From positions 18,228,001 through 18,292,000 of the forward strand of contig NC_135254.1 of NCBI RefSeq assembly GCF_964204865.1: a stretch of 64,000 nt of DNA. Direction: 5' to 3'. This document shows, piece by piece, positions 33,701 to 59,633 of the stretch (positions are counted from its first letter, which is position 1; every line of letters starts with the position of its first letter). The notes under the pieces are model-generated. The model was not told where the DNA came from and did not search any database. It worked only from the letters and a program-made list of their open reading frames with translations. Source of the stretch: Styela clava. Lineage: Eukaryota. The translations under genes were made by a program, and so were the position numbers.

Positions 33701-36700
33701 ACAGAATTGCAAATAAACGTAATAAATTATGCCGCAGTAACATCAAATGACAATATCCGTATCAAATGAGTTGTCATACAGTGTGTCCAAAAAGTCTGTT
33801 CACAATTTCAATTTTGTTATGAAGTCAGTTCTCATTATATCTTAACCATATTTTTTGATTTTTAATCAGTGATAATTTAAGTATTTTTCTTCATTTAATA
33901 CGTATGTGAGGGCCAAAACAATATATGGTATCGATAAGTTAAATTTCAAACATTTCAGGACTCAAGGACACCCGTATATATTGAAATATGAAAAAGACTG
34001 CGCCTCGCCAAGTTCGGGGGTTGAACAGATTATATATGTCGTTATACATTTCGAATAAAACTTTCATGTTACCGCCTCGCGCCATTTTGTAAAGTACAGT
34101 ATTCGATAGATGCTGAATCAGAAACAGAGCTACTGTACTACACAATTGCCAAGTTATGAATAACCGAATCGCCGTGACAGTGAACGACCAATCAAAGCGA
34201 CTGTATCATTTCATATTTGAAAAAAAGTATTTTAGTATATATAAAGTTCCTTAAAACTCTGTACTATTTGCTGGAGTGGAATGTGGTATTTCGTATTGAC
34301 GTTCACAAATACAATTCATTTTTTTTTATGTATGAGTATTCATATGTTCAAATTATAGGAATCTGACACTTGGTGGTAATTTCCGACGTTTTTACAAAGA
34401 CTAGAGCATGTTCTTTCATTCCGTCCGGTACATCGATTTTTTTATTTGAAGCCAATTATTCTGTCTGCACCCACGTCACTTGCTAATTTTTCAATGCTAT
34501 TTACTATGTCTCCTGCGGAAAATATCTTTATCTTCACATTAGTAGAATGAGCAGGCAGGCGATAGTCTAATAAATTTTCTTTATGTAAGACGCAATGTCT
34601 TGACAAACCTATTCTTCGCCACATCAAAAATCCAGTTCACAGTAATTTCATTCGCAATGACAAGAAAGGGGCATCATTTTCAAGAAGCCAATGATTGGTT
34701 GAGTTGTATGAATCACCCAAAATGTTCGTGGTGTTTGCATTCACATACATAGGCGAGAAAACTTTCTCAAGTATGAAGATTAGCACAAGCAAAAACAGAT
34801 GTCTTCTAAGGATTTAAATTTACAAATTGTCTTAAGAATCAGCACAATCTGCTTCGAGCCTAATTTAAACACGCTTTCGGACGCATGCAGTAGGCTACAT
34901 CAGTCCCATTATCCATTGTGCCACTAAATACACTGACTGTTTTTTATCCATAACTTCATTTTAAATTTGAGGCCTCTGGTTAAGTACCCGAGTCTATTAT
35001 CTGTAACTGGCCCACTCAGGAAAGTAATTCTCCACCACTGCAATGAATTGATTATTTTTGGCAAAATGGCGTAAGGCCCAAAATGCGATAGTCTTATTTA
35101 GTACGCTGCTAAGGGTGCGTATTCTTTGGCTTACATATTTGTATAAACTTTTTTTTTCTAAAACGGGCATCATGAAATCTCCTTATTTAGGGTTCTGACA
35201 GAAGATTACTTGGGAAATGGACTTAAAATTGCTAGCACTTCCATTGAAGCAAATTTATGGAAAAAGTTGTCGAAAAAGAGGTTGGCTGCAAATTTCTCAC
35301 TGAATTCATTCGGTGTGACAATTAATTTGAATAGCAGTTTTCTTAAGGCATTATTCGTCTTAACTCATTTTGTCCTGTACGTCAATATTTGTACTTGAAG
35401 CCAATTGTTCTGTCTGTACTCACGTCACTTGCTAATTTTCCAATGTTATTTACTATATTTCCTGCGGCCAATACCTATATCTTTACATTAGTAAAACGAG
35501 CAGGCAGGAAATTCACTAATAAATTTGCTTTATGTAAAACGCAATGTCTTGACAAACCTATCCCTCGCTACTTCAAAAGTCCAGTTCACAATAATTTCTT
35601 TCGTAATGACAGGAAAGACGCATCATTTTCAAGAATCGCTTGAAAAATAATCGTGGTGTTTGCATTCACACACAGAGGCGAGCAAACTTTCCCAAGTATG
35701 GAGACTGACAAAGGCAAAAACCCATGTCGTCTAAGAATTTAAACACACAAGCTACCTGCCTTAAAAAATCAGCACAAGCTGCTTTAAGCCTAATTTAAAC
35801 ACGCTTTCGGACGCATGCAGTAGGCTAGCGACATCAGTCCCATTAATCATTGTGCCACTTAATACACTAGCTGTTTGTCGTATTTCAATTAGCTGTTATT
35901 TATGAATAATTTATTTATCCATAATTTCATTTTGAATAGTTGAGTACCCAAGTCTATTTTCTGTAACTGGCCCACTCAAGAAAGTAATTCTTCACAACTG
36001 CTATAAATTGATCTTTTTTGGCAAAATGGCGTAGGGCCCAAAACGCGATAGTCTTATTTAGTACCTTGCTGAGGGTGCGTATTATTTGCTTGGCTATCAC
36101 ATATGTTGAATAAGAAAGTAAATGATCTGATTTACATCGCTTTCATGTAAAGAATTGTAAAGTATGAGAAACAGAATTGCAAATAAAAGTAATAAATTAT
36201 GCAGCTGTATCATCAATTGACAATATCCGTCTCAAATGAGTAGTCATACAGTGTGTCCAGAAAGTCCGTTCACAATTTCAATTTTGTTATGAAGTCAGTT
36301 ATCAATATATCTTAACCAGATTTTTTGTTTTTTATTCAGCGAGTTCAAGTATTCTTACTTCATTCAATATGTATGTGAGGGCCGAAACAATATATGGTAT
36401 CGATAAGTAAAATTTCAAACATTTTAAGACTCAAGAACACCCTATATAACGGAGTATGAAAAAGACTCGCCTCGCCAAGGAATTTACATTGAATTCCTTC
36501 TACTATGCATTGTGATCAAATTTTGGACTTAAAAAAGCTCTCGAAACTACCATAAATCATGGAATATGTAACGTCATCTAACTCAGAATAAACAATTTCA
36601 TAGTAAAATTCATTCACTTTTTTTCAATATCAAGCTAATGGGGTTTGGGCTGTTCAGAAAATTGGCACTTCAAAATTGAATTTGTTCTATTTAGAACTAT

Positions 36701-37207
36701 ATGAAATGCAATGGGTGATTGAATATTTATGCTAAATTTTTTCCAAATGCATATTATTTAATGATTGTACCTGAAATGAAATGTTGAAGTCAAAAGCCTT
36801 CTTCTTGATTTCCACTTTTCTCCAGATGACGTTAGAAGACCAGTTGCAAGCCAAGGTTGAAGAAATTTATATACCATAGACTTCTTAGTATGTTGTGAAC
36901 TATGGAGTAATGTTTCTGCGCTGTTAGGGCCAAATATATAAACTACTGGAACCGATCCCAAGCTGATAACTCCTATTTCATCACCCGAGGTTAAAGATCT
37001 TTCTCGCATGCCGTTCATATTTCTTTTGTATATTTCTTCTGATCTTCCAGTTAACACTAATGCCTGACCCAAGATTGGCCAGGTTTTGCCCTCAGGGCCC
37101 GAAATATTTTTAAAATGACTCCATTTTTTGCGATGTTTCTTTGTCAGAATTATTGACCAGCAAACACAAGCAAATGCAAGAGCTAATGTAATAATGCTCA
37201 TTTCCAT
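21476..37207 (-). CDS. CYP4V2: Cytochrome P450 clan 4 (CYP4V2-like), 6 coding exons: join(complement 36771..37207, 25523..25729, 23474..23757, 22982..23216, 22054..22146, 21476..21734), 504 aa
   Basis: Manual splicing gives a continuous 1515-nt frame with compatible intron phases. Motifs: N-terminal TM anchor, [29 protein letters not shown]-helix [14 protein letters not shown] (CYP4 signature), K-helix ECMR, DPERF, heme motif [14 protein letters not shown]. The subfamily label is by resemblance only. Confidence 0.93.
22054..22146 (-). CDS. CYP4V-like exon 5 ([31 protein letters not shown]), not in the ORF track in this frame
   Basis: 93-nt phase2-phase2 exon with acceptor tttaag|A and donor AG|GTAAAG. 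It supplies the expected DG..P.GT / ..P..WPD segment before PERF. Confidence 0.88.
22982..23216 (-). CDS. CYP4V-like exon 4 ([11 protein letters not shown]...[11 protein letters not shown]...KEC)
   Basis: Acceptor ttacag|GT completes FEGHDTT; donor GT|GTAAGC. Confidence 0.92.
23474..23757 (-). CDS. CYP4V-like exon 3 (SAAGLITKR...RLAFLDMLL...EEVDTFMFE)
   Basis: Acceptor tttttag|T; ends at the non-canonical donor G|GCAAGC. Confidence 0.9.
23664..24629. repeat. Tandem duplication (23664-24144 and 24149-24629, 485-bp period) spanning the CYP4 intron-2/exon-3 junction
   Basis: The two copies appear identical by eye, with a 4-nt filler TAAT at the junction. Confidence 0.93.
25523..25729 (-). CDS. 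CYP4V-like exon 2 ([13 protein letters not shown]...[13 protein letters not shown]...EYVKAIK)
   Basis: Acceptor acacag|C and donor AG|GTATTA; in frame with exons 1 and 3. Confidence 0.92.
25827..26685. mobile_element. Non-autonomous hAT element in CYP4 intron 1 with a transposase C-terminal remnant
   Basis: CAGGGGCGTGCC ... GGCATGCCACAG ends; 8-bp TSD GCTGTAGA/GCTGTAAA (7/8); minus-strand [11 protein letters not shown] near 26190-26225 (hAT dimerisation motif S.ERSFS). Confidence 0.78.
26810..36478. repeat. Higher-order tandem array in CYP4 intron 1: four ~2.5-kb units, each made of two diverged sub-units
   Basis: Marker TTACCGCCTCGCGCC at ~26829, 29328, 31836, 34069. Marker CGGACGCATGCAGTAG occurs eight times (~27641, 28614, 30135, 31088, 32374, 33329, 34878, 35808). 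Confidence 0.93.
29046..29234. mobile_element. Tc1/mariner-like MITE remnant, amplified once per array unit (also ~31546, 33779, 36249; partial at ~22246)
   Basis: TA|CAGTGTGTCC ... GGACACCCTA|TA imperfect TIRs. Confidence 0.45.
36771..37207 (-). CDS. CYP4V-like exon 1 ([12 protein letters not shown]...TSTFHF)
   Basis: Within ORF 36758..37306. ATG at 37207 precedes the hydrophobic anchor; donor AG|GTACAA at 36771/36770. Confidence 0.9.
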
Positions 37208-39171
37208 TTTGAATTGACCTGAAATGTATTTGTAAATATTAATTATACTGTTCAACATAAATCCTCCTGTGTATATCGGGTTATATATACCATGTCTATG
37301 TACCATTATTTGTTTGTTCTACAGATATATCTGGTATGATACCCAACAAATCAAATTTTACTTTTTTGTAACATTCTTTCATCTACTTGGTTGCTTTCAC
37401 TAAGTTCTCATTGTAATCTGACACACAAGACATTGATTGCTCTGGTAAATATATACCGTACAACAAGAAAATCCGGTAATGTTAAAATAAATTTTGCTGT
37501 CATTACTTTGAAGAATGTACATGTAGTTTGTAGAGTATATCATGTTGATACTTGCTGCCGAATATTTTTGCGGCGAATGCTTTGTAGAATCTCGCAACTC
37601 TCTTGAAATTAGGTTGCAATTGCTGAAAAACCCTAGTCCAATTTACAAACAAAAAAAATTGATGTCAATTTTTGTTGTATCTTTTTTATGAGTCCCAAGT
37701 CGAAATTAACTATGTCAAAGTTCAGAAAAAGGCGTTTACGGGTGTTAAATTCCGGGTTCAATATTTGCGTGCGAATCAAAATCCAAACTTTAACTTGTGC
37801 AAACATATTACATTTTATATAGATTGTGTGCGTTATAACCAGTTGTATGCAATCTAAACATTTGAATTAAGTTGGTAAAATTATGATTCAACTTTAAATA
37901 TTTGATTGGAATACATCAATTCACAACTTAATAAATTTTATTGTTAATATGAAAAATAAGATATTGAAATATTTTCAAAACGCGCCTCATACGAATGATG
38001 ATTATTTAAAATAAATGATTGGAAAATATTGCATTTTAGAAAACTGGAATAGTTATTCAAAATCATTTCCTAAATTTATGAACCTAAATAGAATGTGGCA
38101 CATACCCCTAAAATTATTATTTGTTTGAGATAAAGAAACAGAAAATGTGAAGCAGAAATTTCCCACATATATTTGTTGGAAATTTCTCATCAATTTAATG
38201 ATACATTTGAAAACGGACGTAAAAATAAACATTGCCCGCATCATAAAAAATGTGTGAAATTTGTTCTTTTGAAAACATATCGATTTAAAAAGAATTTCGG
38301 AATTCAACTGATTTTAAGAAATTTCTTCGATCAGGGAAATCGAGCATACGCACAGAAACATTTTTATGAGTTAAGTATGAAAAGCTAGCGCCAAAAAAAC
38401 GGTAAAAGAATTTTTATTGATTGCAGCATTGGTATAGCTTAACTAAGTAAAATGCGTTAACGATCCAAATTTTCAATTATTTCTCAAAGGAATTCCAAAC
38501 ATGACCAACTCATCGTGAAGGCAATGACAATTGAATAAGTTTCAAATCGCATCCGTGATATTTATACAGTTTTTTGCTAACTAAATCTACAATATAAAAC
38601 TGCTTGTATTTGGACTACAATTTTACATTGCAGTGTTCACAACCCTCCTTAATATTTCAGCGCATTCAACCCATCGATAAAACATATAAACGCGAGAACT
38701 TCTCGTAAACCATTACAAAATGAAGGTAATTCAGTTACTCGCTAATTTTCAGTTTAATATTAATTATTGAAAAATACTGAATATCTTGTAGTTTGTGGTA
38801 TTAAGATTTCTCGAATTAAATTAAACTGTATAAGTGTGAATGTGCCGCCTTATTATAATGTTGGATTCAATGCACCTATGCGCTAAAATCTATCTGAGCA
38901 AACCGTCAGTGCGCAGGTCCTTGGGGGTTAGATTACATATTCAAACAATAGCAGCTCTTTGTTATAGTTGATTGATAGTGACCCTAACGTATAAATATTC
39001 TTGTTATGAAAGGCGTTTAGATGCATATAAATAAAAAACAAACTATAGCAATTTTAGGTGCTTTCACATTCGTAAATTAATAACACGTGAGCAACATCAG
39101 AATTCATTTTTCCCAACTAGATTAGGTCTTTCATTGCGAGATGTTTTCATCTAGTTTTACATGGTGAAAAC

Positions 39172-39358
39172 GGTTCCATTACATTTGAACCCACGTACAT
39201 TTGAACCCATGACAATTGCACCTGTATGCTATTGCACCTGTGGAATTTTTTTTGTTTCACGGATAGTTAAACCCATACTAACCCTAACCCATGAGTTTTA
39301 GCACCCGCATATAGATTGAACCCGTGGATATACGCATGGGTTCAAATGTACGGTCACC
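39172..39358. mobile_element. Second copy of the MULE-like MITE, 9-bp TSD GGTGAAAAC
   Basis: Nearly identical to 3451-3653 (one subterminal repeat fewer); TSD at 39163-39171 and 39359-39367. Confidence 0.88.
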
Positions 39359-41628: not shown

Positions 41629-42148
41629 ATCTTTATAATACTATCTCGTTCAAGCATCCTTATGGCAGTTGACACATACGGATCTGAAGTAGAAAGTAAA
41701 CAAGAAGAACGGACTTGCAGTTCAGTACAAAATACCCTAGTATACTAAATACATTTATTCGCTGATCTGTGGTTTCATATTCACTTCTGGGTCTCCGTTA
41801 CTGGTAAGATTATGATTCACCAAAAACGGCTATAAAATATTGTTTTAAATTCTTCTGTTTAAATAATACACTATCTGTGCGAAGCTTTGCTTTTCCGAGG
41901 ATTGAACGAAACTTACGCATTATGTTTACTCAAGTGTGTCTACCCAGTGTGTTTAGCTTTCTTGGCATGATATATTGAAGGAAATTGCTACGTGGTTATT
42001 TTGAATAGCATTAGACAAATTAGACATTTTGAATAGCATTAGACAAAATTTTCGCTGCATATTAAAAAATCTACAAATATGGTACCCAATATGGTGTTGC
42101 CTTTATCTGAATGCATGATTATGTAAGTAGTAGTATAGGTCGGATTCG

Positions 42149-42859
42149 ATACCCAAATAATGTTGCACATGTTGAGCAAATGTTGATCAATGATGCAAAT
42201 GTTGAGCAATACCCAAATAATGTTGCACATGTTGAGCAAATGTTGATCAATGATGCAAATGTTGAGCAATGGTGGTACGTAGGAAGTTGTTATGTAATAT
42301 TGTTTCCGGTATCAGGGGATAGCGTTTGGTAATTTTCGAAAACCATACCCAAATAATGTTGCACATGTTGAGCAAATGTTGATCAATGATGCAAATGTTG
42401 AGCAATACCCAAATAATGTTGCACATGTTGAGCAAATGTTGATCAATGATGCAAATGTTGAGCAATACCCAAATAATGTTGCACATGTTGAGCAAATGTT
42501 GATCAATGATGCAAATGTTGAGCAATGGTGGTACGTAGGAAGTTGTTATGTAATATTGTTTCCGGTATCAGGGGATAGCGTTTGGTAATTTTCGAAAACC
42601 ATACCCAAATAATGTTGCACATGTTGAGCAAATGTTGATCAATGATGCAAATGTTGAGCAATACCCAAATAATGTTGCACATGTTGAGCAAATGTTGATC
42701 AATGATGCAAATGTTGAGCAATACCCAAATAATGTTGCACATGTTGAGCAAATGTTGATCAATGATGCAAATGTTGAGCAATGGTGGTACGTAGGAAGTT
42801 GTTATGTAATATTGTTTCCGGTATCAGGGGATAGCGTTTGGTAATTTTCGAAAACCATA
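42149..42859 (+). repeat. Subterminal hierarchical tandem array: 60-bp unit x(2,3,3), each block followed by an identical 76-bp linker (256-bp higher-order period)
   Basis: Unit ATACCCAAATAATGTTGCACATGTTGAGCAAATGTTGATCAATGATGCAAATGTTGAGCA; the same ORFs recur every 256 bp in the track. Confidence 0.95.
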
Positions 42860-44423
42860 TCGGCAACCGTGTGTTAGTCATTAAGTTTATGGTTTGTCGT
42901 ATATTTACATGCACCTATGGAATTTTTTTGTTTTTGTTTACGTACATTTGAACTCATGTGTTGTTTTTGATAATTTGTGAATGTAATCAGCATTTCAAGT
43001 ACATGTACCCACACTACTTGCATTTTGAAATTTGGATTTCATCAATATTACGTAAGTCAGTACGTATATGTGAGTATTATACGTCAGCGAAACATGACTG
43101 TATTCCTCATAGCAATGCTCGTATTAGAAGTGAATAAGATATGATTTATTTGATTAGCTTTTATCATTGGCAGCTTTCGTTTATGTTCTTTAGCTTCCCA
43201 AATGTGTTAGTCATTAAATTTATGGTATATTTTGTATGTGTTTATATATTAGAGTATTGAGCAATATATATGAGGGTTTAAATCTTCTTTTTTGAGCCGA
43301 GTGATGCAGAGTGGTAATTTATTTCGTGTTTAGGAAATCATGCAATGTCGTAGTTAAGTTTTGTGCATCTGTTGATTGGAAACAACCATAAGGATGTACT
43401 GACTTTAGTAGAAAAATGACAACTGAGTTGACATAATTAAATTCAAAAAACGTATGTTTACTGACCGACGTATGTTAAAATAATTGAAAAACGATTGTTA
43501 TTGGAGGTTTAGCGAGAAATAAAATGCAACAGGCTGCGCATCGGTTTGAAAAAAAAAATTACAATATAAAACAGCTGACAAAAAAAAAGGTCGTGTTTCC
43601 CGGTCTAGTCGTTTGATTTGTTTTTTTTTTACAGTTGTTTATTTTTTTTTTCATTACTCTTTTATTTTCGGTTTATTTTTGATCTTGAAAATTTTATTTT
43701 TTTTAAATTTTTTTTTTTTTTTTCAATTTTACAAGAAATCGATAGTTTGACATATTATTTACCACAGAGATTCTTTTTCACAGACTTTACTGTTGTTTTT
43801 GATAATTTGCGAATGCAATCAGCATTTCGAGTACATGTACCCACACTACTTGCATTTTGAAATTTGGATTTCATCAATATCACGTAAGTCAGTACGTATA
43901 TGTGAGTATTATACGTCAGCGAAACATGACTGTATTCCTCATATCAATGCTCGCAAGTAGATTGTTCTTCCTCGTATTAGAAGTGAATAAGATATGATTT
44001 ATTTGATTAGCTTTTATCATTGACAGCTTTCGTTTATGTTTTTTAGCTTCCCAAATAGGCAACCCTAGTGATTGTCCTACATTCCCCAGATGTGATGCCA
44101 GACTTCAATACCTAACTTCGGTAAAATTGTCTTTGAATATTCAAAAAATGGTATATTTATCAGTGTAGAGTAGATGGTCTGTCATATACATAACACATTT
44201 TTATAAGTTGCAAATAGTTTCATCGCTATTGGCAAAATATTTACCACCCTCTAAATTTCGAAACACAACCCCCCCCAATAATGAAAATATATATATATCA
44301 ATGGAGCATGGTAGCCAGAATAATGATATCATAATGGATGGGAAGCAGATAATAATATTTAACAAAGGTTACCAAAGTAAACAAGATCCGAAAATGATAT
44401 AAATATATTAGTACAATGTCATA

Positions 44424-45320
44424 TTACCGTAGAAGTTTTTTGTTGATAATTTCCCATACCATGGCTCGCCGAAAGTAAGGCATATCTCGCTGGGAAAATG
44501 TTAAGTCTGATTTAGAAGTAATATACTCTGCAAATTTGCAAGCAAAGACTCCACAATCTGATCCATTCATTTGTTGCGGTATATCAGACATTGACAACAG
44601 TTGCCAGTCAGAAAGATTGATCTCTGATCCTTTTTTATCCTTGTGCTCACAAAGAAGATAATTTTTTAGGATTTCAAGGCATTCCCGATTGGCTCCACCC
44701 ATTGAATCATAATATCTTATTTGTTTCGATATGAAATCAACGACAGCTAGACACCAATGCACGCCAAGATGTATTGGATACAGAACGATGTCTTTGGAAA
44801 ATATATCAACTTTTTTTGTCCACCGACGTACTGATGTATAAGATTGTGTACTCAATCGAGGATAAAAGAATGTATTCATGGAATGTACTGCGGGGTAATC
44901 TTTTACATCTTTAGAGCGCTGAACAATCAATTCCATATAAAAATTTATAATTTCATCATTAAGCCAATTTAGACCGAACAAAGTCGACATGTGCTCGCGG
45001 GTTATTGAAATGTTGAAACACTCAGAAAGGACTTGATTTGGAGGATATGGAACTAGTGCTTTGTTTATGTGTTCGCTCATGTCGGAAGTCAGCTCAGGAA
45101 GTGTGGGTTGTTCGATAATCTTTTTTTCTTGGAGTTTTAATTTGTTGTGTAAAATTTCAGCCAGAAGTGCATCTTTCTCTTTACGTTTCTCGTGCCAAAG
45201 TCGGGCTCGTGTTTCTTCAGCACGTGTTTGAGCTTGCCTCTGACGAACTCGACGATTGTATGTTTTTAACATGTCAGGAACGAAATTTTGTGACAAATAT
45301 GGAGAAGAAAACTCTTTCAA
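44424..45320 (-). CDS. SENP1: SENP1/2-like SUMO-specific protease (Ulp1 / peptidase C48 catalytic domain), copy 1; first ATG at 45272 (282 aa)
   Basis: WLNDEIINFYM, NTFFY, HLGVHWCLAVVDF (catalytic His), YYDSMG (Asp), PQQMNGSDCGVFAC (oxyanion Gln and Cys), MPYFRRAMVWEI; uninterrupted frame. The ORF-track start is TTG. Confidence 0.92.
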   Translation of the reverse strand: MKEFSSPYLSQNFVPDMLKTYNRRVRQRQAQTRAEETRARLWHEKRKEKDALLAEILHNKLKLQEKKIIEQPTLPELTSDMSEHINKALVPYPPNQVLSECFNISITREHMSTLFGLNWLNDEIINFYMELIVQRSKDVKDYPAVHSMNTFFYPRLSTQSYTSVRRWTKKVDIFSKDIVLYPIHLGVHWCLAVVDFISKQIRYYDSMGGANRECLEILKNYLLCEHKDKKGSEINLSDWQLLSMSDIPQQMNGSDCGVFACKFAEYITSKSDLTFSQRDMPYFRRAMVWEIINKKLLR

Positions 45321-48300
45321 AATCTGGCTTCTCTTTATACTATCATTGAGAGTGGTTTCTGTTTGACTTTCGGCACCCCGAAGGACTAAGTTGTATATAC
45401 TTATCGCTTTGTGTAAAAACTTTCACTTGAATCGTTTTTTATTTTAATTTTTAAATTTTCACGTCATTGGACGCGAAATGGACGTGTCCTTTGTCCTGTC
45501 CGATATCCATTTTGTTATTGTGCTATTGTTGTAGTCGGAATTCTTCTTTTTGTTGTGAAAAAAAAAATCGCGTTTCTCATTAACTACAAGACCAATTGCT
45601 TTTGCTTTGATTAGTTTCAAAGACTTGTGTGGTCTTTATGGAATTATTCATTCCAAAATTTTTAACTCTTAACTATATGCACATATATACTTGAGTTTTT
45701 ACACCAACTTCATCTTGCAGTCAAGCGAAAAATTACAGCTTATAATTAGAGAAAAATAAATTAGTTTTTAAAATTTTTGATAAACAAAACACACTTCTCT
45801 CATTTTTAACATCCATAATTCAGTATTCATCAAAAAATAAACGAAGAATCTAATTATATTGCAAAACTTCCACGCCAGAAGGACCAAATAATATATACTT
45901 ATGAGAAATGCTTCGCGTCAGCATCTTTGTTTTGAATTGTTTTTTATTTCAATTTTGGAACTTCATTTTATTGGACACGATATGTACCTATAATTGCTTT
46001 CTTTTTCATGTTATTGTTACGTTATTGTTGGTGTAATTTCACTTTTTGTCGCTTTTCTCTATCTATGGAACCAATTGCTTTGAATTTTGCATTGGGTAAA
46101 GATTGTTGTACTCTAATTAATTTAAAAAACTGTTGTGGGCTATATGGAATTTATTTTTCATTTCAAAATTTAAAAAAAATGCGTCAGTCTGCCGATACTG
46201 TACGATTATGATGCTATTTCATTTTAGCTTTCGTGTCCATATATTGAAGCATTGATTTTTTGTTTTTATAAGAGCAAGCAAGGCCATGCGCACCAACTCA
46301 GGAGTAAAGGAGACTGACCTCGATACATTGTACGAGTTAAAAATAAAATCTCCGGCAAATGTTGTTCTTATGTCATAAAAAAAAAACTTGAGCACATTGA
46401 TTATTCGACAAAATCGAATTTAATGAACAACCCCAGCAAAATCAGAACCAATATATCCTAGAAAATTTTCTGTCAGGGTTTTTTGACGTTGGCAAGATAT
46501 AGAGATTTGAATTATACGTTTTTTTTTACTAAAATCGCGGCATTGGGCCTTTCAGCAAATCTTACGATGGAAATTTTGGACTTGCAGAATATTAAGGAAT
46601 ATGCAACGTAGAGTGTTCTATTCACTGTAAACATCACAAAGATAGAAACTATACTCATCAAATAAACTGTCGTAAGTTCAATTATTATTCGTTTTCATAC
46701 GTTTTCTGTGTACGTAACTAATCAGTAGAGTAAATCCACATCTTGCAATCAAACTTGATTCTAAAAATATAAAAAATATGATTTGTCTCAGTATTATTCC
46801 GTAGATGCAAATGTATTTGGTGTACTTGCTTCTGAATCTACTTATTTTGGGGATTGCACTCAATACAGCATTCCACTTTTTAGATGTATATATTCGCTTT
46901 TAACAAACTTTGAAGTCAAAGAGATTTCAAAAAATTAGTCTTAAGTGACCACTAACTGTATGCAAAAAAAAAATTATTTTTTAAAGGCACAAGTTGATAT
47001 GGTATCACAAGAAGACTTGAATATTTTTTGTCTGGAACGATTATGAAAAACGCAAAATGATAAATCGCTGATAAGAACACACTTCGGATTGAAAGTGCGC
47101 TACCGGTAAAGTTTTCTCGGATAGGATACGGTCGAACGAAAACTTTTAACTTACCCTTACTGGTATTTTTACGCAGGAACGTAGCAAAGTTGAAAATGTG
47201 TAATATTAAGCTGTGATTAAAGAGAATTGTTATTGCACATATACTAAAACAAAAAACACTCACTTGATCCTGTTGATTGCACCTCGGACGTAATTTTGGT
47301 AATGCGTACCTAATTCTGTACTTGAATGCACTGGAAAATGGAACCGTTTCAGACCAATGTACAGTTGTGCTTCGCTGATTGAAATTATTGAGATGATTTT
47401 AATAATATATCTGTCTTAAGGCTACCATAATAACAGAAACAAGAGAGCAATTCCCAAATATATGTACACGTTAACCAGAGCGAAGCAATGCTTACCTTTG
47501 ACGCTACCGGTACCCTCCAACAATTTCCGAGTTACTCGTAGCAAGAATTTACAGTATCTAACTGGACAGCCAGAGTTCCCATGTATAAAATAATACAGCG
47601 AAATTTTGGACGAAATATCAGACTTCATACGAAATTTAGACATAAAGAAAAGTAATAGCCTTCTGGCAAAAAATCAATCTTTACCCACTGAAAATTTTAA
47701 AGCCATTGTCCAAGTATTCGAAGAGAGAAGCTATTTTTAATGATAATGATGACGAATAACAAGAACAACAACAACATAATATCGAAACAATCGCTATGTC
47801 CATTAGCGTGTCCAAAAACAAAGACATTGTAAGAAAGGTAAGGTTTGTTTTTTCGTCCGGGTGTCAACGGATCGTGAAAGTACTACATCGAGTTACTCGT
47901 GGCGTCAAATTTAATACCCATTCGAAAACCAATGTTCTTTTCCTTAGCTACTGGACTAAACGCTTTCGAAATATCAGATGTTGAATATAGTGTCATCCTC
48001 TAAAAAAATTCACTTTCCTTTTAAAATAAATCATCAGGACTTCCCGTGCTCATTGTAACCCCACATATTGTTTTAAGTTGAACTACGGCGTGGTTTTTCC
48101 GATGAGCCAATTTTCCGAGCAAGTATTAAAAATAGAACAATATAACAGAGTTGAACGATGATTTAGCAAAACTTTCCACAGGTTTATTCATGTTCAATAG
48201 GCTACTGAGATGACAACGTTCATTTAGTTACAATAGCTCACTTTCATTGCATATTGCATTAAATGTTTCGTTTTATCATCTGAAAGAGAGACCGCTTTCT

Positions 48301-48528
48301 TTGCGCCAGGCATCGTTATAAATATCAACTTTTTTACGGTATTCAAAACTTCGTGAAGAGCCTGAGAACCAAAAATAAAATGGCAAGTTGGTATCAAAAT
48401 TACCTTGACAACGAACGTTCATTATGATTATTATAATATAAAATTAATGATATCGTGGTAAGGACATTTTCTAAAGTCTAAACTATACATTGTCAGTAAT
48501 CATAATTACATACCAATCAGTTCTTATT

Positions 48529-48748
48529 GGTGACAGCACATTTGAACCCACGTACATTTGCACCCGTACATTTGCACCCACCGACATTTGCATCCCGGAC
48601 ATTTGAACCCCCGTACATTTGCACCCACCGACATTTGCATCCCGGACATTTGCACCCCGGACATTTGCACCCCGGACAATTGCACCTACATACTATTGCA
48701 CCTATGGAATTTTTTTTTGTTTTTGTTTACGTACATTTGAACTCATGT
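48529..48748 (+). mobile_element. Truncated left end of a MULE-like element (ACATTTG[A/C]ACCC subterminal repeats) in the palindrome spacer
   Basis: GGTGACAGCACATTTGAACCCACGTACATTTG... resembles the termini and subterminal repeats of the MITEs at 3451 and 39172. It stops at the right-arm junction. Confidence 0.7.
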
Positions 48749-50908
48749 TCTGGTTAACGTGTACATATATTTGGGAATTGCTCTCTTGTTTCTGTTATTA
48801 TGGTAGCCTTAAGACAGATATATTATTAAAATCATCTCAATAATTTCAATCAGCGAAGCACAACTGTACATTGGTCTGAAACGGTTCCATTTTCCAGTGC
48901 ATTCAAGTACAGAATTAGGTACGCATTACCAAAATTACGTCCGAGGTGCAATCAACAGGATCAAGTGAGTGTTTTTTGTTTTAGTATATGTGCAATAACA
49001 ATTCTCTTTAATCACAGCTTAATATTACACATTTTCAACTTTGCTACGTTCCTGCGTAAAAATACCAGTAAGGGTAAGTTAAAAGTTTTCGTTCGACCGT
49101 ATCCTATCCGAGAAAACTTTACCGGTAGCGCACTTTCAATCCGAAGTGTGTTCTTATCAGCGATTTATCATTTTGCGTTTTTCATAATCGTTCCAGACAA
49201 AAAATATTCAAGTCTTCTTGTGATACCATATCAACTTGTGCCTTTAAAAAATAATTTTTTTTTTTGCATACAGTTAGTGGTCACTTAAGACTAATTTTTT
49301 GTAATCTCTTTGACTTCAAAGTTTGTTAAAAGCGAATATATACATCTAAAAAGTGGAATGCTGTATTGAGTGCAATCCCCAAAATAAGTAGATTCAGAAG
49401 CAAGTACACCAAATACATTTGCATCTACGGAATAATACTGAGACAAATCATATTTTTTATATTTTTAGAATCAAGTTTGATTGCAAGATGTGGATTTACT
49501 CTACTGATTAGTTACGTACACAGAAAACGTATGAAAACGAATAATAATTGAACTTACGACAGTTTATTTGATGAGTATAGTTTCTATCTTTGTGATGTTT
49601 ACAGTGAATAGAACACTCTACGTTGCATATTCCTTAATATTCTGCAAGTCCAAAATTTCCATCGTAAGATTTGCTGAAAGGCCCAATGCCGCGATTTTAG
49701 TAAAAAAAAACGTATAATTCAAATCTCTATATCTTGCCAACGTCAAAAAACCCTGACAGAAAATTTTCTAGGATATATTGGTTCTGATTTTGCTGGGGTT
49801 GTTCATTAAATTCGATTTTGTCGAATAATCAATGTGCTCAAGTTTTTTTTTTATGACATAAGAACAACATTTGCCGGAGATTTTATTTTTAACTCGTACA
49901 ATGTATCGAGGTCAGTCTCCTTTACTCCTGAGTTGGTGCGCATGGCCTTGCTTGCTCTTATAAAAACAAAAAATCAATGCTTCAATATATGGACACGAAA
50001 GCTAAAATGAAATAGCATCATAATCGTACAGTATCGGCAGACTGACGCATTTTTTTTAAATTTTGAAATGAAAAATAAATTCCATATAGCCCACAACAGT
50101 TTTTTAAATTAATTAGAGTACAACAATCTTTACCCAATGCAAAATTCAAAGCAATTGGTTCCATAGATAGAGAAAAGCGACAAAAAGTGAAATTACACCA
50201 ACAATAACGTAACAATAACATGAAAAAGAAAGCAATTATAGGTACATATCGTGTCCAATAAAATGAAGTTCCAAAATTGAAATAAAAAACAATTCAAAAC
50301 AAAGATGCTGACGCGAAGCATTTCTCATAAGTATATATTATTTGGTCCTTCTGGCGTGGAAGTTTTGCAATATAATTAGATTCTTCGTTTATTTTTTGAT
50401 GAATACTGAATTATGGATGTTAAAAATGAGAGAAGTGTGTTTTGTTTATCAAAAATTTTAAAAACTAATTTATTTTTCTCTAATTATAAGCTGTAATTTT
50501 TCGCTTGACTGCAAGATGAAGTTGGTGTAAAAACTCAAGTATATATGTGCATATAGTTAAGAGTTAAAAATTTTGGAATGAATAATTCCATAAAGACCAC
50601 ACAAGTCTTTGAAACTAATCAAAGCAAAAGCAATTGGTCTTGTAGTTAATGAGAAACGCGATTTTTTTTTTCACAACAAAAAGAAGAATTCCGACTACAA
50701 CAATAGCACAATAACAAAATGGATATCGGACAGGACAAAGGACACGTCCATTTCGCGTCCAATGACGTGAAAATTTAAAAATTAAAATAAAAAACGATTC
50801 AAGTGAAAGTTTTTACACAAAGCGATAAGTATATACAACTTAGTCCTTCGGGGTGCCGAAAGTCAAACAGAAACCACTCTCAATGATAGTATAAAGAGAA
50901 GCCAGATT

Positions 50909-51805
50909 TTGAAAGAGTTTTCTTCTCCATATTTGTCACAAAATTTCGTTCCTGACATGTTAAAAACATACAATCGTCGAGTTCGTCAGAGGCAAGCTCA
51001 AACACGTGCTGAAGAAACACGAGCCCGACTTTGGCACGAGAAACGTAAAGAGAAAGATGCACTTCTGGCTGAAATTTTACACAACAAATTAAAACTCCAA
51101 GAAAAAAAGATTATCGAACAACCCACACTTCCTGAGCTGACTTCCGACATGAGCGAACACATAAACAAAGCACTAGTTCCATATCCTCCAAATCAAGTCC
51201 TTTCTGAGTGTTTCAACATTTCAATAACCCGCGAGCACATGTCGACTTTGTTCGGTCTAAATTGGCTTAATGATGAAATTATAAATTTTTATATGGAATT
51301 GATTGTTCAGCGCTCTAAAGATGTAAAAGATTACCCCGCAGTACATTCCATGAATACATTCTTTTATCCTCGATTGAGTACACAATCTTATACATCAGTA
51401 CGTCGGTGGACAAAAAAAGTTGATATATTTTCCAAAGACATCGTTCTGTATCCAATACATCTTGGCGTGCATTGGTGTCTAGCTGTCGTTGATTTCATAT
51501 CGAAACAAATAAGATATTATGATTCAATGGGTGGAGCCAATCGGGAATGCCTTGAAATCCTAAAAAATTATCTTCTTTGTGAGCACAAGGATAAAAAAGG
51601 ATCAGAGATCAATCTTTCTGACTGGCAACTGTTGTCAATGTCTGATATACCGCAACAAATGAATGGATCAGATTGTGGAGTCTTTGCTTGCAAATTTGCA
51701 GAGTATATTACTTCTAAATCAGACTTAACATTTTCCCAGCGAGATATGCCTTACTTTCGGCGAGCCATGGTATGGGAAATTATCAACAAAAAACTTCTAC
51801 GGTAA
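50909..51805 (+). CDS. SENP1: SENP1/2-like SUMO-specific protease (Ulp1 / peptidase C48 catalytic domain), copy 2; first ATG at 50957 (282 aa)
   Basis: Translation identical to copy 1, with the full His-Asp-Cys triad. Confidence 0.92.
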   Translation: MKEFSSPYLSQNFVPDMLKTYNRRVRQRQAQTRAEETRARLWHEKRKEKDALLAEILHNKLKLQEKKIIEQPTLPELTSDMSEHINKALVPYPPNQVLSECFNISITREHMSTLFGLNWLNDEIINFYMELIVQRSKDVKDYPAVHSMNTFFYPRLSTQSYTSVRRWTKKVDIFSKDIVLYPIHLGVHWCLAVVDFISKQIRYYDSMGGANRECLEILKNYLLCEHKDKKGSEINLSDWQLLSMSDIPQQMNGSDCGVFACKFAEYITSKSDLTFSQRDMPYFRRAMVWEIINKKLLR

Positions 51806-53370
51806 TATGACATTGTACTAATATATTTATATCATTTTCGGATCTTGTTTACTTTGGTAACCTTTGTTAAATATTATTATCTGCTTCCCATCCATTATGA
51901 TATCATTATTCTGGCTACCATGCTCCATTGATATATATATATTTTCATTATTGGGGGGGGTTGTGTTTCGAAATTTAGAGGGTGGTAAATATTTTGCCAA
52001 TAGCGATGAAACTATTTGCAACTTATAAAAATGTGTTATGTATATGACAGACCATCTACTCTACACTGATAAATATACCATTTTTTGAATATTCAAAGAC
52101 AATTTTACCGAAGTTAGGTATTGAAGTCTGGCATCACATCTGGGGAATGTAGGACAATCACTAGGGTTGCCTATTTGGGAAGCTAAAAAACATAAACGAA
52201 AGCTGTCAATGATAAAAGCTAATCAAATAAATCATATCTTATTCACTTCTAATACGAGGAAGAACAATCTACTTGCGAGCATTGATATGAGGAATACAGT
52301 CATGTTTCGCTGACGTATAATACTCACATATACGTACTGACTTACGTGATATTGATGAAATCCAAATTTCAAAATGCAAGTAGTGTGGGTACATGTACTC
52401 GAAATGCTGATTGCATTCGCAAATTATCAAAAACAACAGTAAAGTCTGTGAAAAAGAATCTCTGTGGTAAATAATATGTCGAACTATCGATTTCTTGTAA
52501 AATTGAAAAAAAAAAAAAAAATTTAAAAAAAATAAAATTTTCAAGATCAAAAATAAACCGAAAATAAAAGAGTAATGAAAAAAAAAATAAACAACTGTAA
52601 AAAAAAAAACAAATCAAACGACTAGACCGGGAAACACGACCTTTTTTTTTGTCAGCTGTTTTATATTGTAATTTTTTTTTTCAAACCGATGCGCAGCCTG
52701 TTGCATTTTATTTCTCGCTAAACCTCCAATAACAATCGTTTTTCAATTATTTTAACATACGTCGGTCAGTAAACATACGTTTTTTGAATTTAATTATGTC
52801 AACTCAGTTGTCATTTTTCTACTAAAGTCAGTACATCCTTATGGTTGTTTCCAATCAACAGATGCACAAAACTTAACTACGACATTGCATGATTTCCTAA
52901 ACACGAAATAAATTACCACTCTGCATCACTCGGCTCAAAAAAGAAGATTTAAACCCTCATATATATTGCTCAATACTCTAATATATAAACACATACAAAA
53001 TATACCATAAATTTAATGACTAACACATTTGGGAAGCTAAAGAACATAAACGAAAGCTGCCAATGATAAAAGCTAATCAAATAAATCATATCTTATTCAC
53101 TTCTAATACGAGCATTGCTATGAGGAATACAGTCATGTTTCGCTGACGTATAATACTCACATATACGTACTGACTTACGTAATATTGATGAAATCCAAAT
53201 TTCAAAATGCAAGTAGTGTGGGTACATGTACTTGAAATGCTGATTGCATTCACAAATTATCAAAAACAACACATGAGTTCAAATGTACGTAAACAAAAAC
53301 AAAAAAATTCCATAGGTGCATGTAAATATACGACAAACCATAAACTTAATGACTAACACACGGTTGCCGA

Positions 53371-54081
53371 TATGGTTTTCGAAAATTACCAAACGCTATC
53401 CCCTGATACCGGAAACAATATTACATAACAACTTCCTACGTACCACCATTGCTCAACATTTGCATCATTGATCAACATTTGCTCAACATGTGCAACATTA
53501 TTTGGGTATTGCTCAACATTTGCATCATTGATCAACATTTGCTCAACATGTGCAACATTATTTGGGTATTGCTCAACATTTGCATCATTGATCAACATTT
53601 GCTCAACATGTGCAACATTATTTGGGTATGGTTTTCGAAAATTACCAAACGCTATCCCCTGATACCGGAAACAATATTACATAACAACTTCCTACGTACC
53701 ACCATTGCTCAACATTTGCATCATTGATCAACATTTGCTCAACATGTGCAACATTATTTGGGTATTGCTCAACATTTGCATCATTGATCAACATTTGCTC
53801 AACATGTGCAACATTATTTGGGTATTGCTCAACATTTGCATCATTGATCAACATTTGCTCAACATGTGCAACATTATTTGGGTATGGTTTTCGAAAATTA
53901 CCAAACGCTATCCCCTGATACCGGAAACAATATTACATAACAACTTCCTACGTACCACCATTGCTCAACATTTGCATCATTGATCAACATTTGCTCAACA
54001 TGTGCAACATTATTTGGGTATTGCTCAACATTTGCATCATTGATCAACATTTGCTCAACATGTGCAACATTATTTGGGTAT
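53371..54081 (-). repeat. Mirror copy of the subterminal 60/256-bp array
   Basis: Exact reverse complement with the same copy numbers. Confidence 0.95.
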
Positions 54082-55322
54082 CGAATCCGACCTATACTAC
54101 TACTTATGTACCAACCAATTAAAATTTAGATGGTTTTAATCTATTAAACAAAGAAACACCCACTAATACCAAGTGGCACTAGATGCATTTCATTTCTATA
54201 TTACTTGCCGTTTGCGAAAGATCTCAGATTTGAATTTATTTATTGTGTTCAGAAAACTCGACGTTTTCTTTTCTCTGCCGCATGGCATAGGCACATAAAT
54301 TTAATGTTTAATATACATCACATAAAGTACTAAAATACCTTTTTTGTTAATTCATTGCCCAACTCTCTGTTATTTCTTTATGGCCACCCCATAAATCGTT
54401 TGCTTGCATCAGCCATTCGCATTCGCCCATGCTTAAGTGGCATATCTTACGAAAGCAAAATGCTGTTATCCAGTAATAACGGCGACAAAAAATAAACAGT
54501 CGGAATTGTAAGCGTCACTGCGCGTGGTTCCCACTGCCGACGAGGAATTTACAAGCACCACGGCAAATAGTCGAACGGATAATATTATAACGAGGTTCTC
54601 GAACTAATCTTAAGTTGCGATTGTTATGCATCGAAGGAAGAGAGTATCACCGATCACATGGATTTGTAGAAGCACGCCACATGACATAAATTTTACAATG
54701 AGGTATTTATGTAAAATGGCAATCTATCTGTTTGCTCTTCCATTCCCATATTATTTAGCGAGATTTGCACCATTTGTCACAAATTTACGATGTCATTCGA
54801 TTTATGCACGTTTGGAACCGAAACCTCTTTTTGGTAAATAATAACGGTAACTGTAATTTAGACAGTAAATAGGCGTGCTCAGTTTTACATTTCAATTTAT
54901 TAGTCTATGGACGGGTTTACCCTTTTGTAGAGTTCCGGTTATCGACGCGTATTTTTCTTATATATGAATAATAACTAATCTACAATACGTTCGCCATGGA
55001 TCGAATGGCTTACCTATATGTATCAATAACATGTTGACGACAAACACCTGTAACGTAAACAATATATTGTGCAATTCGACCTTGTATCAAAATTATGTGC
55101 TAATTCGCACTTTATTTAGAGAATTGTGATAGATGATTTTGTAGGATGAATGGTATACTTTAACCCATTGCTTAAACATCGCTGATACTATTTTCTATGT
55201 TTGCAAAAAATTAGAAATTATTTCTTTAAAAAACTTTTGTTTTTATTTCATATTCGAGAATAGGAGCGTTCATTAATGCTATTTAAAAAAAAATTATCTT
55301 TTCGTGTTCTTTGGTAGTTGCC

Positions 55323-57449: not shown

Positions 57450-58430
57450 ATCAGATGTCTTGTACACCTACATCTTATACATCAGATGTTTTGTCCACAT
57501 GAATCCCATTTATCATGGATACCATTTACCAGATGTTTTGTCTATATACATTCATATCACGAAATGTTTTACCACCAACATTTGCTATGTTTTTGTTTTT
57601 TCATGAAATCTCTTTCATTAGCGGTTTTGTCCACATAAATCCCTTTCGTCAGATGTTTTGTATACATGAATCCCGTTTATCATACATCTCATTACCAGAA
57701 GTTTTGTCCATATGCGTCTCATCCAGCCGTATTCAGTACTCATAGATATCCGTTCATTAGGGGTTTTGCCACATATATCTCATTCAACAATATTTTGTCC
57801 AAATACATTTCACTCGTCAGATGTTTCGTTCACATCCATCTCATTCATCAGATGTTTCGTTCACATCCATCCCATTCATCAGATGTTTCGTCCACATCCA
57901 TTCCATTCTCCAGGTGTTTCGTCCACATCAATCCAACTCATCAGATGTTTCGTCCACTTTCATTCCATTTTTCAGGTGTTTTGTCCACATCAATCTCACT
58001 CATCAGATGTTTCGTCCACATCCATTCCATTCTTCAGGTGTTTCGTCCACATCAATCCAACTCATCAGATGTTTCGTCCACTTTCATTCCATTTTTCAGA
58101 TGTTTCGTCCACATCCATTCCATTCTTTAGGTGTTTTGTCCACATCAATCCCACTCATTAGATGTTTCGCCCACATCCATTCCATTCTTCAGTTGTTTTG
58201 TCCACATCAATCCCACTCATTAGATGTTTCGTCCACATCTATTCCATTCTTCAGGTGTTTTGTTCACATCCATTTCATTCACCAGATGTTTTGTTCACAT
58301 TCATCCCATTCTTCAGGTGTTTAGTACACATCCATCCCACACATTCGATGTTTTGTCTACATCCATTCTATTCTTCAGATGTTTTGTCCACATCCTGTCC
58401 ATCCATCAGATGTTTTGTCCACATCCATTC
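57450..58430 (+). repeat. ~31-bp minisatellite (CAGATGTTTCGTCCACATCCATTCCATTCTT-like), homogeneous in 57815-58430 and degenerate to the left
   Basis: Visible periodicity; it generates repetitive RCFVHI / SSDVSST ORFs in all three frames. Confidence 0.92.
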
Positions 58431-59633
58431 CGTTCCGGTTGTTGGACATTTTACTGCATTTGCGGTCCCGTTGTTGAAATAAAATTGTGGTAAAAAATGA
58501 ATAGCTTACTTTTTCTGGTGAACTCAGTTATTAATTTATGTTTTTTTTACATCATATTAGATCTTTTTACGTTACAACACGCAAATAACTAGTACAGCAG
58601 TAACGTGTAATAGATGTTCCTCCGACCTTTGACCCCACGAAAATTCATTATATGGACCTTTCCCCGAGCATCAACTTCCTTGTTTACTTCGGGACATTAG
58701 TCAATCAGCAAGATGCAAAAAGTGACGTAACTATGCTCCCTTTGCGCATCCGCTCAGACACTTTTCCCACTCAGACAGATTTTCAAGCGTGGTCGTAAAC
58801 ATTACCTCGTTTTCGCATATTTGAACTCTATTCGTTAGTTTTCAGTTGTATTTCGGAAACTTAAATGTAAACCAGATAATTCAATGATCACTTCGTCTTC
58901 CTAGGAGTTTTAATAAAAATTAGTGTAGAAATAGCTGTGATAAACTAGGCTAAAATTCTTTACCGGTACTTTTAAAAACAGATATATACGATAATTCATA
59001 ATGATGGTTTCAAACACACACCCCATTTTACAGGCGCCAACTCGCAAAAGCACTCTTAAAATAGCCCCAAAAATTTTGCAATGGTCAAGTAAAGGAAGAA
59101 TTTTTAGGGGGTCTTAGATCGGGAAAAGGTCCATACCTTTCTAATAATAAAATTTATATTGAATTGCTATGAATACTCTTATAATTTCACACAAACATAT
59201 TTCATATAATTTCTTTGCAGTTCTGTAAACGTCCGCGTCGTGTTGTGAATATATTACATTTTTGCGAAGTAGGTGCGTTCCGGTTGTTACGATTTTTCCA
59301 GGTCATCACTGGTCAGAATAGCTGAAAAATATTTTCATTTTTTGTATGTATATACAATCAAATTTTTATTGAAAAATATCCGTCATAAATAGTAATTACA
59401 ATCTTCAGTAAAATCAGTTATAGTTCACCTACACACCAATTTCCACAACCTTAAAAAATTGCTCTGATTATTCGTTTAAGTCAAGTGAAGCTCTTCCCAA
59501 GTGAATAAAATCCTATACAGTACGTGGGACAAGTGGAAGACGTGGAACACGACATTTTTGAGACACCGTATACGGCATCACCATTATTCGATGCACCAGG
59601 GCTCCTTTCTTACGAGTGGAAATCGAGAGTGTA

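Follow-up and report, generated by a model that had tools for sequence, protein, structure and literature searches.

How did a palindrome of almost 12 kb, whose only long open reading frames (ORFs) are two identical copies of a host-derived SUMO protease (SENP) domain, come to lie in the genome of Styela clava, and what moves it? The palindrome spans positions 42126-54104 (11,979 bp) of a stretch of 64,000 nucleotides (RefSeq assembly GCF_964204865.1, contig NC_135254.1, positions 18,228,001 to 18,292,000, forward strand), here called the window. A preliminary description of this DNA had read it as a recently integrated, helper-dependent Polinton/Maverick satellite that lost all core genes and spreads a deSUMOylase. 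In this study, we consider it likely that the element is a non-autonomous, snap-back derivative of a Polinton, which uses the polymerase and integrase of a helper and carries a recently captured fragment of a host gene as a passenger. It is not a Polinton proper, since by the definition given in PMC5499653 Polintons encode PolB and a retroviral-type integrase.

The element lies between two copies of TATGTA, and its borders and outer parts are as follows.

42120-42125, plus strand: left copy of the target-site duplication (TSD), TATGTA, known from the sequence and from an empty paralogous site
42126-47479, plus strand: left arm, 5,354 bp, starting AGTAGTAGT
42149-42859, plus strand: subterminal tandem array, 2.8 x 256 bp, with 60-bp units
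53371-54081, minus strand: mirror of the subterminal tandem array
48749-54104, minus strand: right arm, 5,356 bp, the left arm inverted
54105-54110, plus strand: right copy of the TSD, 6 bp, known from the sequence

The termini read AGTAGTAGT and ACTACTACT, and the arms, previously put at 5.35 kb, are 99.9% identical with five differences (three substitutions and two single-base indels). A flank match of 6/6 has a chance probability of 4e-4. A paralogue at C5:18292450-18292615 resembles the left flank; for the right flank, with the TSD included, the match is C5:18292142-18292455 on the same strand. On this inverted paralogue, about 10 kb away, the two matches overlap by exactly six bases, which is the paralogous empty site. 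Therefore, both element boundaries and the TSD are fixed, in agreement with the perfect 6-bp duplication reported before. Among the 11 copies examined (see below), the subterminal array is expanded only in the window copy, there in both arms. An Rfam scan of 42000-54200 gave no match.

Near-perfect palindromes are a known read artefact, and a fold-back artefact of long-read sequencing or assembly was considered here. The chance of this is negligible: the perfect TSD is combined with unlike flanks and an empty site, the arms differ at five positions, and arm and SENP sequences occur in other samples. Moreover, ten independent insertions with distinct 6-bp TSDs and graded arm divergence rule out an assembly artefact for the family as a whole.

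In the 377-Mb genome, the palindrome family occupies at least 16 loci. Eleven copies of 9.4-13.3 kb, window copy included, were examined. They represent ten independent insertions, as the two C5b copies are one insertion duplicated in tandem. Five further family loci (C4:15.43, C5:8.74, C10:12.67, C13:1.56 and C16:9.46 Mb) are outside all counts, as are the two older relatives on C9. TSD sequences differ among all ten insertions and match at 6/6 bases in five (window, C4, C17, C5b, C13), at 5/6 in four and at 4/6 in one, a match of at least 5/6 having a chance probability of 0.007. AGT-type termini are found throughout, except for one end of C18 (AGTGGT). The C4 copy, which has no SENP, shows a perfect TSD and arms 0.24% apart. 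An exact search with a 14-nt end pattern returned seven places, four of them known ends, and with one mismatch allowed 113 matches were obtained vs 304 for the reversed control, i.e., no excess. The further SENP-bearing copies with different 6-bp TSDs that had been expected are present in this genome, and a young copy within a family of 6-bp-TSD insertions bears out the earlier view of a recent, genuine, non-autonomous Polinton-derived element. Older collinear relatives of the inner arm (72-92%), which do not carry the 385-bp repeat described below, were seen at G000:C9:12496155-12498209 and C9:8726824-8728833.

The history of the arms was followed in a 2.08-kb inner-arm alignment (2,080 sites). 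Divergence between the arms of a copy ranges from 0.05% (window, C17) up to 2.4% (C10), and in seven out of ten insertions both arms of a copy group as sisters. In the remaining three, C2 is ambiguous, arms from the two C5b duplicates are intermixed, and C13 has arms that are not related to each other (3.8%). The window copy carries seven private variants in both arms vs one difference between them, and C17 six vs one. As judged from this alignment, the arms have been homogenised within each copy, and since copy-specific variants occupy both arms, they appear to have been reset from one template. Alternatively, the palindrome arose once and was copied whole ever since, its arms being kept alike by chromosomal gene conversion only, as in sex-chromosome palindromes, with no reset at transposition. 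We give this alternative a minor but appreciable chance. It would account for the tracts of conversion found between copies and for C13 (G000:C13:15177156-15186521), which has unlike arms and ends between perfect TSDs. It would also fit the excess of imperfect TSDs, of which five among ten were observed vs 0.57 expected from arm divergence (P 3e-5). This excess suggests either that conversion took place after insertion, some copies being older than is apparent from their arms, or that TSDs are not formed precisely. However, the right arms of the C5b tandem duplicates are 0.10% apart, whereas left and right arms differ by 0.34-0.48%, and arm asymmetries have been kept in the two duplicates, so in-place conversion is not rapid. 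In addition, the junctions at the centre vary between copies.

The centre of the window copy contains three further features.

47435-47819, no strand assigned: dispersed repeat of about 385 bp, many copies at about 85%, inside which the match of the left arm to the right arm stops
47480-48748, plus strand: the "spacer", DNA of the inner arm that one side alone has retained, found in both arms of seven other copies
48529-48748, plus strand: remnant of a foldback element (ACATTTGCACCC arrays), the symmetry centre of the family

The 1.27-kb spacer of the preliminary description does exist as a segment, but it is no true spacer; by comparison with the other copies, it is a one-sided deletion of the inner arm. 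In seven of the 11 copies (C4, C17, C8a, both C5b, C8b, C10) the palindrome is continuous except for a loop of about 30-90 nt, which is cut differently in each and lies inside a small element of ACATTTGCACCC arrays. For C17, folding of the centre gave a z of -30. This foldback element is dispersed in the genome (1,857 first-look candidates), and free copies at window positions 3451-3653 and 39172-39358 have their own 9-bp TSDs, unequal ends and GG termini. Unlike the free copies, the palindrome centres show the same end of the foldback element on both sides, with mirrored flanks. Fold-back at short inverted repeats is a known model for the formation of large palindromes, and from its anatomy the small foldback element is likely to be the fold-back point that made the palindrome. 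In the window copy, about 50 nt near the outer arm ends (42910-42959) match the centre junction (48698-48748), and by alignment the same match is seen in C17, which suggests that the template was switched between centre and end.

The relation to Polintons is seen in the outer part of the arms.

43196-43610, plus strand: segment collinear (78-82%, three blocks) with the subterminal region of one end of the Polinton at G000:C14:2879861-2886522, which bears PolB and is broken
52620-53034, minus strand: mirror of the Polinton-homologous segment

The C14 Polinton has a 6-bp TSD (CCCTCC), PolB remnants and patchy terminal inverted repeats (TIRs) within about 290 bp, and its end is 93% identical to the end of the C18 palindrome over 43 nt. 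At one end, past the TIR, its positions 355-1110 align collinearly to positions 1071-1485 of the element, in the left and the right arm alike (78-82%). Since this one-end region matches both arms, both derive from the same Polinton end, with the caveat that a short piece of the homologous segment is also found internally in the Polinton at C8:2.99 Mb. The latter is a sister of the C14 copy with remnants of integrase and PolB; together they match the palindrome ends at 90-93% over 42-43 nt and at 77-82% over further blocks. Homology thus identifies the outer 1.5 kb or so of each arm as one end of a Polinton family that is present in the genome. No ORF or tblastn remnant of PolB, integrase, ATPase, adenain-like protease or capsid was detected in the 11 palindromes with frames of the genome's own Polintons as queries. 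The derivation of both arms from a single end speaks against the simple loss of all core genes that had been supposed.

A candidate helper was sought among the Polintons of the genome. The family with the closest ends has two PolB-bearing copies (C14:2.88 Mb and C8:2.99 Mb), both broken, and no Polinton was found to share the 23-nt end exactly, contrary to what had been anticipated. Among the Polinton copies compared, only one on C2 (G000:C2:12758297-12774269; 15,973 bp, TSD TACGTA, TIRs of about 336 bp) has unbroken capsid and integrase frames. It contains open frames for a protease, a capsid (double-jelly-roll in the atlas, 0.99), an integrase with chromodomain, an ATPase and an OB-fold protein, and its PolB region consists of three successive open frames. 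Its end shares at most 15 nt with palindromes, namely with the right ends of C5b and C13; for the window copy, only 7 nt are shared in register. Pfam genome searches (Pox_A32, double-jelly-roll capsid, adenain) gave no match despite the presence of a Polinton with such genes and are too insensitive to indicate absence; a PDB sequence search with the Polinton capsid gave no match either. A PF03175 match at C1:14.62 Mb was rejected as a Polinton, as the frame was read as host DNA polymerase delta. Strong PF03175 matches with in-frame TGA on the small contigs G000:C317, C271 and C120 suggest organellar-code linear plasmids or another organism. Further, an element of about 3 kb with inverted C14-type Polinton ends and no PolB match (G000:C8:8434447-8437668) is possibly an ordinary short non-autonomous form.

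With no matching intact Polinton in the assembly, one might suppose that a cut-and-paste transposase of the foldback/Mutator or Ginger type moves the element and that its Polinton end is incidental. Long arms with tandem subrepeats do resemble those of foldback elements, an element of this kind forms the centre, and capture of Ulp1 domains is known from Mutator and Ginger1 (PMC2836005). Nevertheless, we regard this as very unlikely, and cut-and-paste mobilisation is disfavoured. The palindrome combines 6-bp TSDs with AGT termini, whereas TSDs of 9 bp and GG termini characterise the central foldback family and Ginger1 is described with 4-bp TSDs and TGT termini (PMC2836005). Moreover, it is the outermost bases that are homologous to Polintons.

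The only ATG-started ORFs of at least 100 amino acids inside the element are two intact SENP frames, exactly as first noticed.

44297-45377, minus strand: captured host segment (1,092 host bases, 98% to G000:C8:4829789-4830880), the 3' coding part of SENP and the start of the 3' untranslated region (UTR)
44424-45272, minus strand: ORF of 282 amino acids from an internal host Met, with the whole SENP1/2-type catalytic domain and without the host N-terminal region
50852-51932, plus strand: mirror of the captured host segment
50957-51805, plus strand: identical second SENP ORF of 282 amino acids

The frame matches Pfam Peptidase_C48 (E 4.7e-44), and its closest solved structure is the catalytic domain of human SENP1 (construct matched from residue 58 on, E 4.5e-83). 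The His-Asp-Cys triad of the C48 family and the oxyanion Gln are present as H172, D189, C240 and Q234, roles that we take over from human SENP1. The donor is a host SENP gene outside the palindromes (G000:C8:4829202-4830743, open frame of 513 codons) and is the only close SENP1/2-type match in the genome besides the element copies. The capture begins 35 codons ahead of the internal Met, ends in the 3' UTR and substitutes for about 1.6 kb of the SENP-less copies. Its junctions show microhomology of 1 and 3 nt and no poly(A). Retroposition was rejected as the route on these grounds and as the donor itself is intronless over its 513 codons. Such intronless stretches are unusual for an animal; besides the host SENP, one was seen in a polymerase delta-like gene (L051:3690-6866, frame of 1,058 codons). 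As the junctions are the same in all SENP carriers, a single capture event is indicated, and sequence comparison supports a DNA-level event within the species. SENP is present in five and absent from five of the ten insertions. The frame is intact in four of 11 arm copies, including those of the two youngest copies, and broken in the other seven by deletion, a nonsense change or frameshifts; C5b has lost the start-codon region in both arms. C13 carries the earliest-branching form in its left arm only, with a frameshift in the assembled frame. The likeness of this arm to the SENP lineage is confined to about 2 kb surrounding the gene, which indicates transfer of SENP between element lineages.

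Expression was assessed by aligning four of 20 listed sequencing runs, none recorded as RNA, to 44060-47430. X5 and X10, from two studies, were guessed to be RNA, supported by zero depth in the intron, and X20 is a DNA run.

46761-47263, minus strand: intron of 503 nt (GT..AG) in an element transcript that reads outward; splicing is seen in two probable RNA runs
48965-49468, plus strand: mirror of the intron, placed by arm alignment

Both X5 and X10 show a joint that skips 46761-47263 with minus-strand GT..AG and no depth inside, while X6 and X20 cover the intron. One contig per probable RNA run spans the 5' junction between element and SENP (45318-45557, depth 14.7; 45330-45869, depth 10.6). 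Because of the splice joint and these contigs, the element transcript is taken to read outward into the captured SENP; the contigs do not prove a single transcript, and none in the aligned runs spans the 3' junction of SENP. The alleles in the probable RNA resemble the C13 lineage, with its frameshifted SENP in the assembly, and not the window lineage. The spliced leader has 28 ATGs within 1,488 nt upstream of the SENP start, which makes translation doubtful, and the protein output is probably low. In X20 (about 6% of the run), 10 out of 11 reads have the element-lineage base at 44922, and the base of window and C17 at 44639 is missing in 16 out of 16. Thus, SENP-bearing elements exist in another sample, in which the window/C17 sublineage was not seen. 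A hand tally of post-capture changes gave 13 nonsynonymous to 11 synonymous, with omega at about 0.3-0.4 (P 0.006-0.04 vs neutrality). Without a cluster of six changes in C5b1 the ratio is 12:6 (P 0.17-0.35). One change of this cluster also occurs in X10, and the cluster may represent conversion from a host allele.

It is tempting to speculate that SENP is a selected cargo. Freed of its N-terminal targeting region, the catalytic domain would strip SUMO from silencing factors and thereby aid transposition of the element or its helper. The whole catalytic domain was captured, it lies in the sense of a spliced transcript whose 5' junction is bridged in both probable RNA runs, the two youngest copies keep intact frames, the element-lineage base recurs in X20, and omega on all changes is low. 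Ulp1 domains also recur in Ginger1 and Mutator transposons, where a role in transposition was proposed (PMC2836005). We still think this unlikely. Most arm copies are broken, the SENP-less C4 is also young, and a SENP without start reached both arms of C5b. Upstream ATGs abound, the RNA alleles belong to a C13-like lineage, a 3'-junction contig is absent, and a helper gene acting in trans would return little selective gain to the copy that carries it. Hence, of the deSUMOylase-spreading element first described, the host-derived SENP1/2-type domain (98%) stands. The spreading function is not supported, with SENP-less copies as common and as mobile and most SENP copies broken, and SENP is most likely a passenger.

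For the non-autonomous snap-back derivative that we favour, we propose the following course. The outer 1.5 kb or so of the arms stem from one end of a resident Polinton family, as their homology shows. Insertion of a small foldback element about 6 kb inwards may have allowed a strand to fold back on the inverted repeats of this element and to be extended, so that a palindrome with one Polinton end in duplicate resulted; the anatomy of the centre is consistent with this. Based on known Polinton biology, both ends would act as origins for protein-primed PolB and as substrates of the retroviral-type integrase, with the enzymes provided in trans, which would account for the 6-bp TSDs. The TSDs and the ends are what points to mobilisation in trans by PolB and integrase. 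Homogenisation of the arms may proceed mostly by refolding and resynthesis, or by hairpin repair, during replication, with some conversion after insertion. A single DNA-level event swapped 1.6 kb of an arm for 1,092 bp of host SENP, arm resetting then doubled the captured segment, and a recombination tract of about 2 kb carried SENP between element lineages. Finally, a promoter of the element would read outward through the spliced leader into SENP, a step that is partly shown. Several observations weigh against this course. The inner three quarters or so of each arm have no Polinton homology, and the assembly, which is of one individual, holds no intact Polinton of the closest-ended family while the window copy is very young. 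The unlike arms of C13 between perfect TSDs, the excess of imperfect TSDs, the SENP 5' junction in probable RNA and the low omega count on the same side.

The arms of the family represent an internal clock, and together with the fold-back centre and graded ages they provide a genomic read-out of Polinton replication, which in animals has been modelled so far mostly from gene content. The family is also a target for finding hairpin or protein-capped intermediates. For the capture of a host gene by a Polinton-ended element, donor, both junctions, pre-capture form and a decay series are preserved in one genome. Should the protease turn out to be translated and under selection, it would offer a way to test the long-standing proposal that Ulp1 domains carried by transposons counteract control by the host. 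In the most far-reaching version, Polintons give rise to snap-back satellites that are integrated in the germline and rebuilt from one arm at every replication round, and the family has begun to express a captured, untethered SUMO protease, which weakens SUMO-dependent silencing of the family and its helper; as a whole, we judge this version improbable. If true, captured genes would be doubled at once, and an anti-silencing gene would have been caught during its acquisition, within recent species history.

In the neighbourhood, there is a cytochrome P450 frame on the minus strand (36758-37306). The element is located 4.8 kb upstream of it, in a region that has an inverted paralogue just beyond the end of the window. 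About four diverged tandem repeats of 2.2-2.5 kb directly follow the P450 frame (26500-37306). A 31-bp minisatellite of 21.5 copies (57769-58435) and a perfect 485-bp tandem duplication (23664-24629) were also observed.

Ends of the form (AGT)2//(ACT)2 with a 6-bp TSD are described for vertebrate Mavericks (PMC8097293). Autonomous Polintons and the palindromes have in common (AGT)n termini, the 6-bp TSD, end homology to a family with PolB and integrase, and a size near the lower range. In contrast, the palindromes have no gene or remnant for PolB, integrase, ATPase, protease or capsid, both their ends come from one parental end, and their arms reach 5-6 kb, compared with TIRs of 100-1,500 bp given for Polintons (PMC10748475). 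Non-autonomous Polintons are known by name, such as Polinton-1N1_DR of Repbase (PMC9341505). Polintons without PolB that bear cargo, and gene-containing TIRs of 2 kb, were described as well (bioRxiv 10.1101/2025.02.07.637071). In the cases described in that preprint, PolB is missing and other canonical genes are present, whereas here the whole element is a palindrome and the sole gene is host-derived. Like the palindromes, non-autonomous Polintons are helper-dependent, Polinton-ended and able to carry foreign DNA. A zebrafish member with multi-kb TIRs is reportedly listed by Kapitonov and Jurka in 2006 or in Repbase. No wholly palindromic Polinton derivative or Polinton-borne SENP was found in the literature searched, most subscription papers and Repbase lying outside that search.

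Pack-MULEs capture fragments of host genes at the DNA level (PMC6431247), and Ulp1/SENP protease domains occur in DNA transposons of the Mutator and Ginger1 groups, in Ginger1 with an integrase fused to Ulp1/OTU (PMC2836005). The palindromes resemble them in both respects and differ in their ends, their TSD and the lack of a transposase; the TSD length, TGT termini and integrase fusion of Ginger1 are all absent from the element. Furthermore, the Ulp1 domains of Mutator and Ginger1 are old and transposase-fused, whereas the SENP was captured within the species at 98% DNA identity. Mutator and foldback transposons have TSDs of about 9 bp and TIRs starting with G, features that are found only in the small central element, while the whole element has a 6-bp TSD and AGT ends. 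Snap-back or hairpin defective genomes are known from protein-primed or hairpin replicons (adenovirus, adeno-associated virus, linear plasmids), and large palindromes primed by short inverted repeats are known as well. The elements studied here resemble these in the duplication of one end by fold-back at a short inverted repeat and in their helper dependence, but differ from them in being integrated in the germline with TSDs and in having diverged by up to about 5%.

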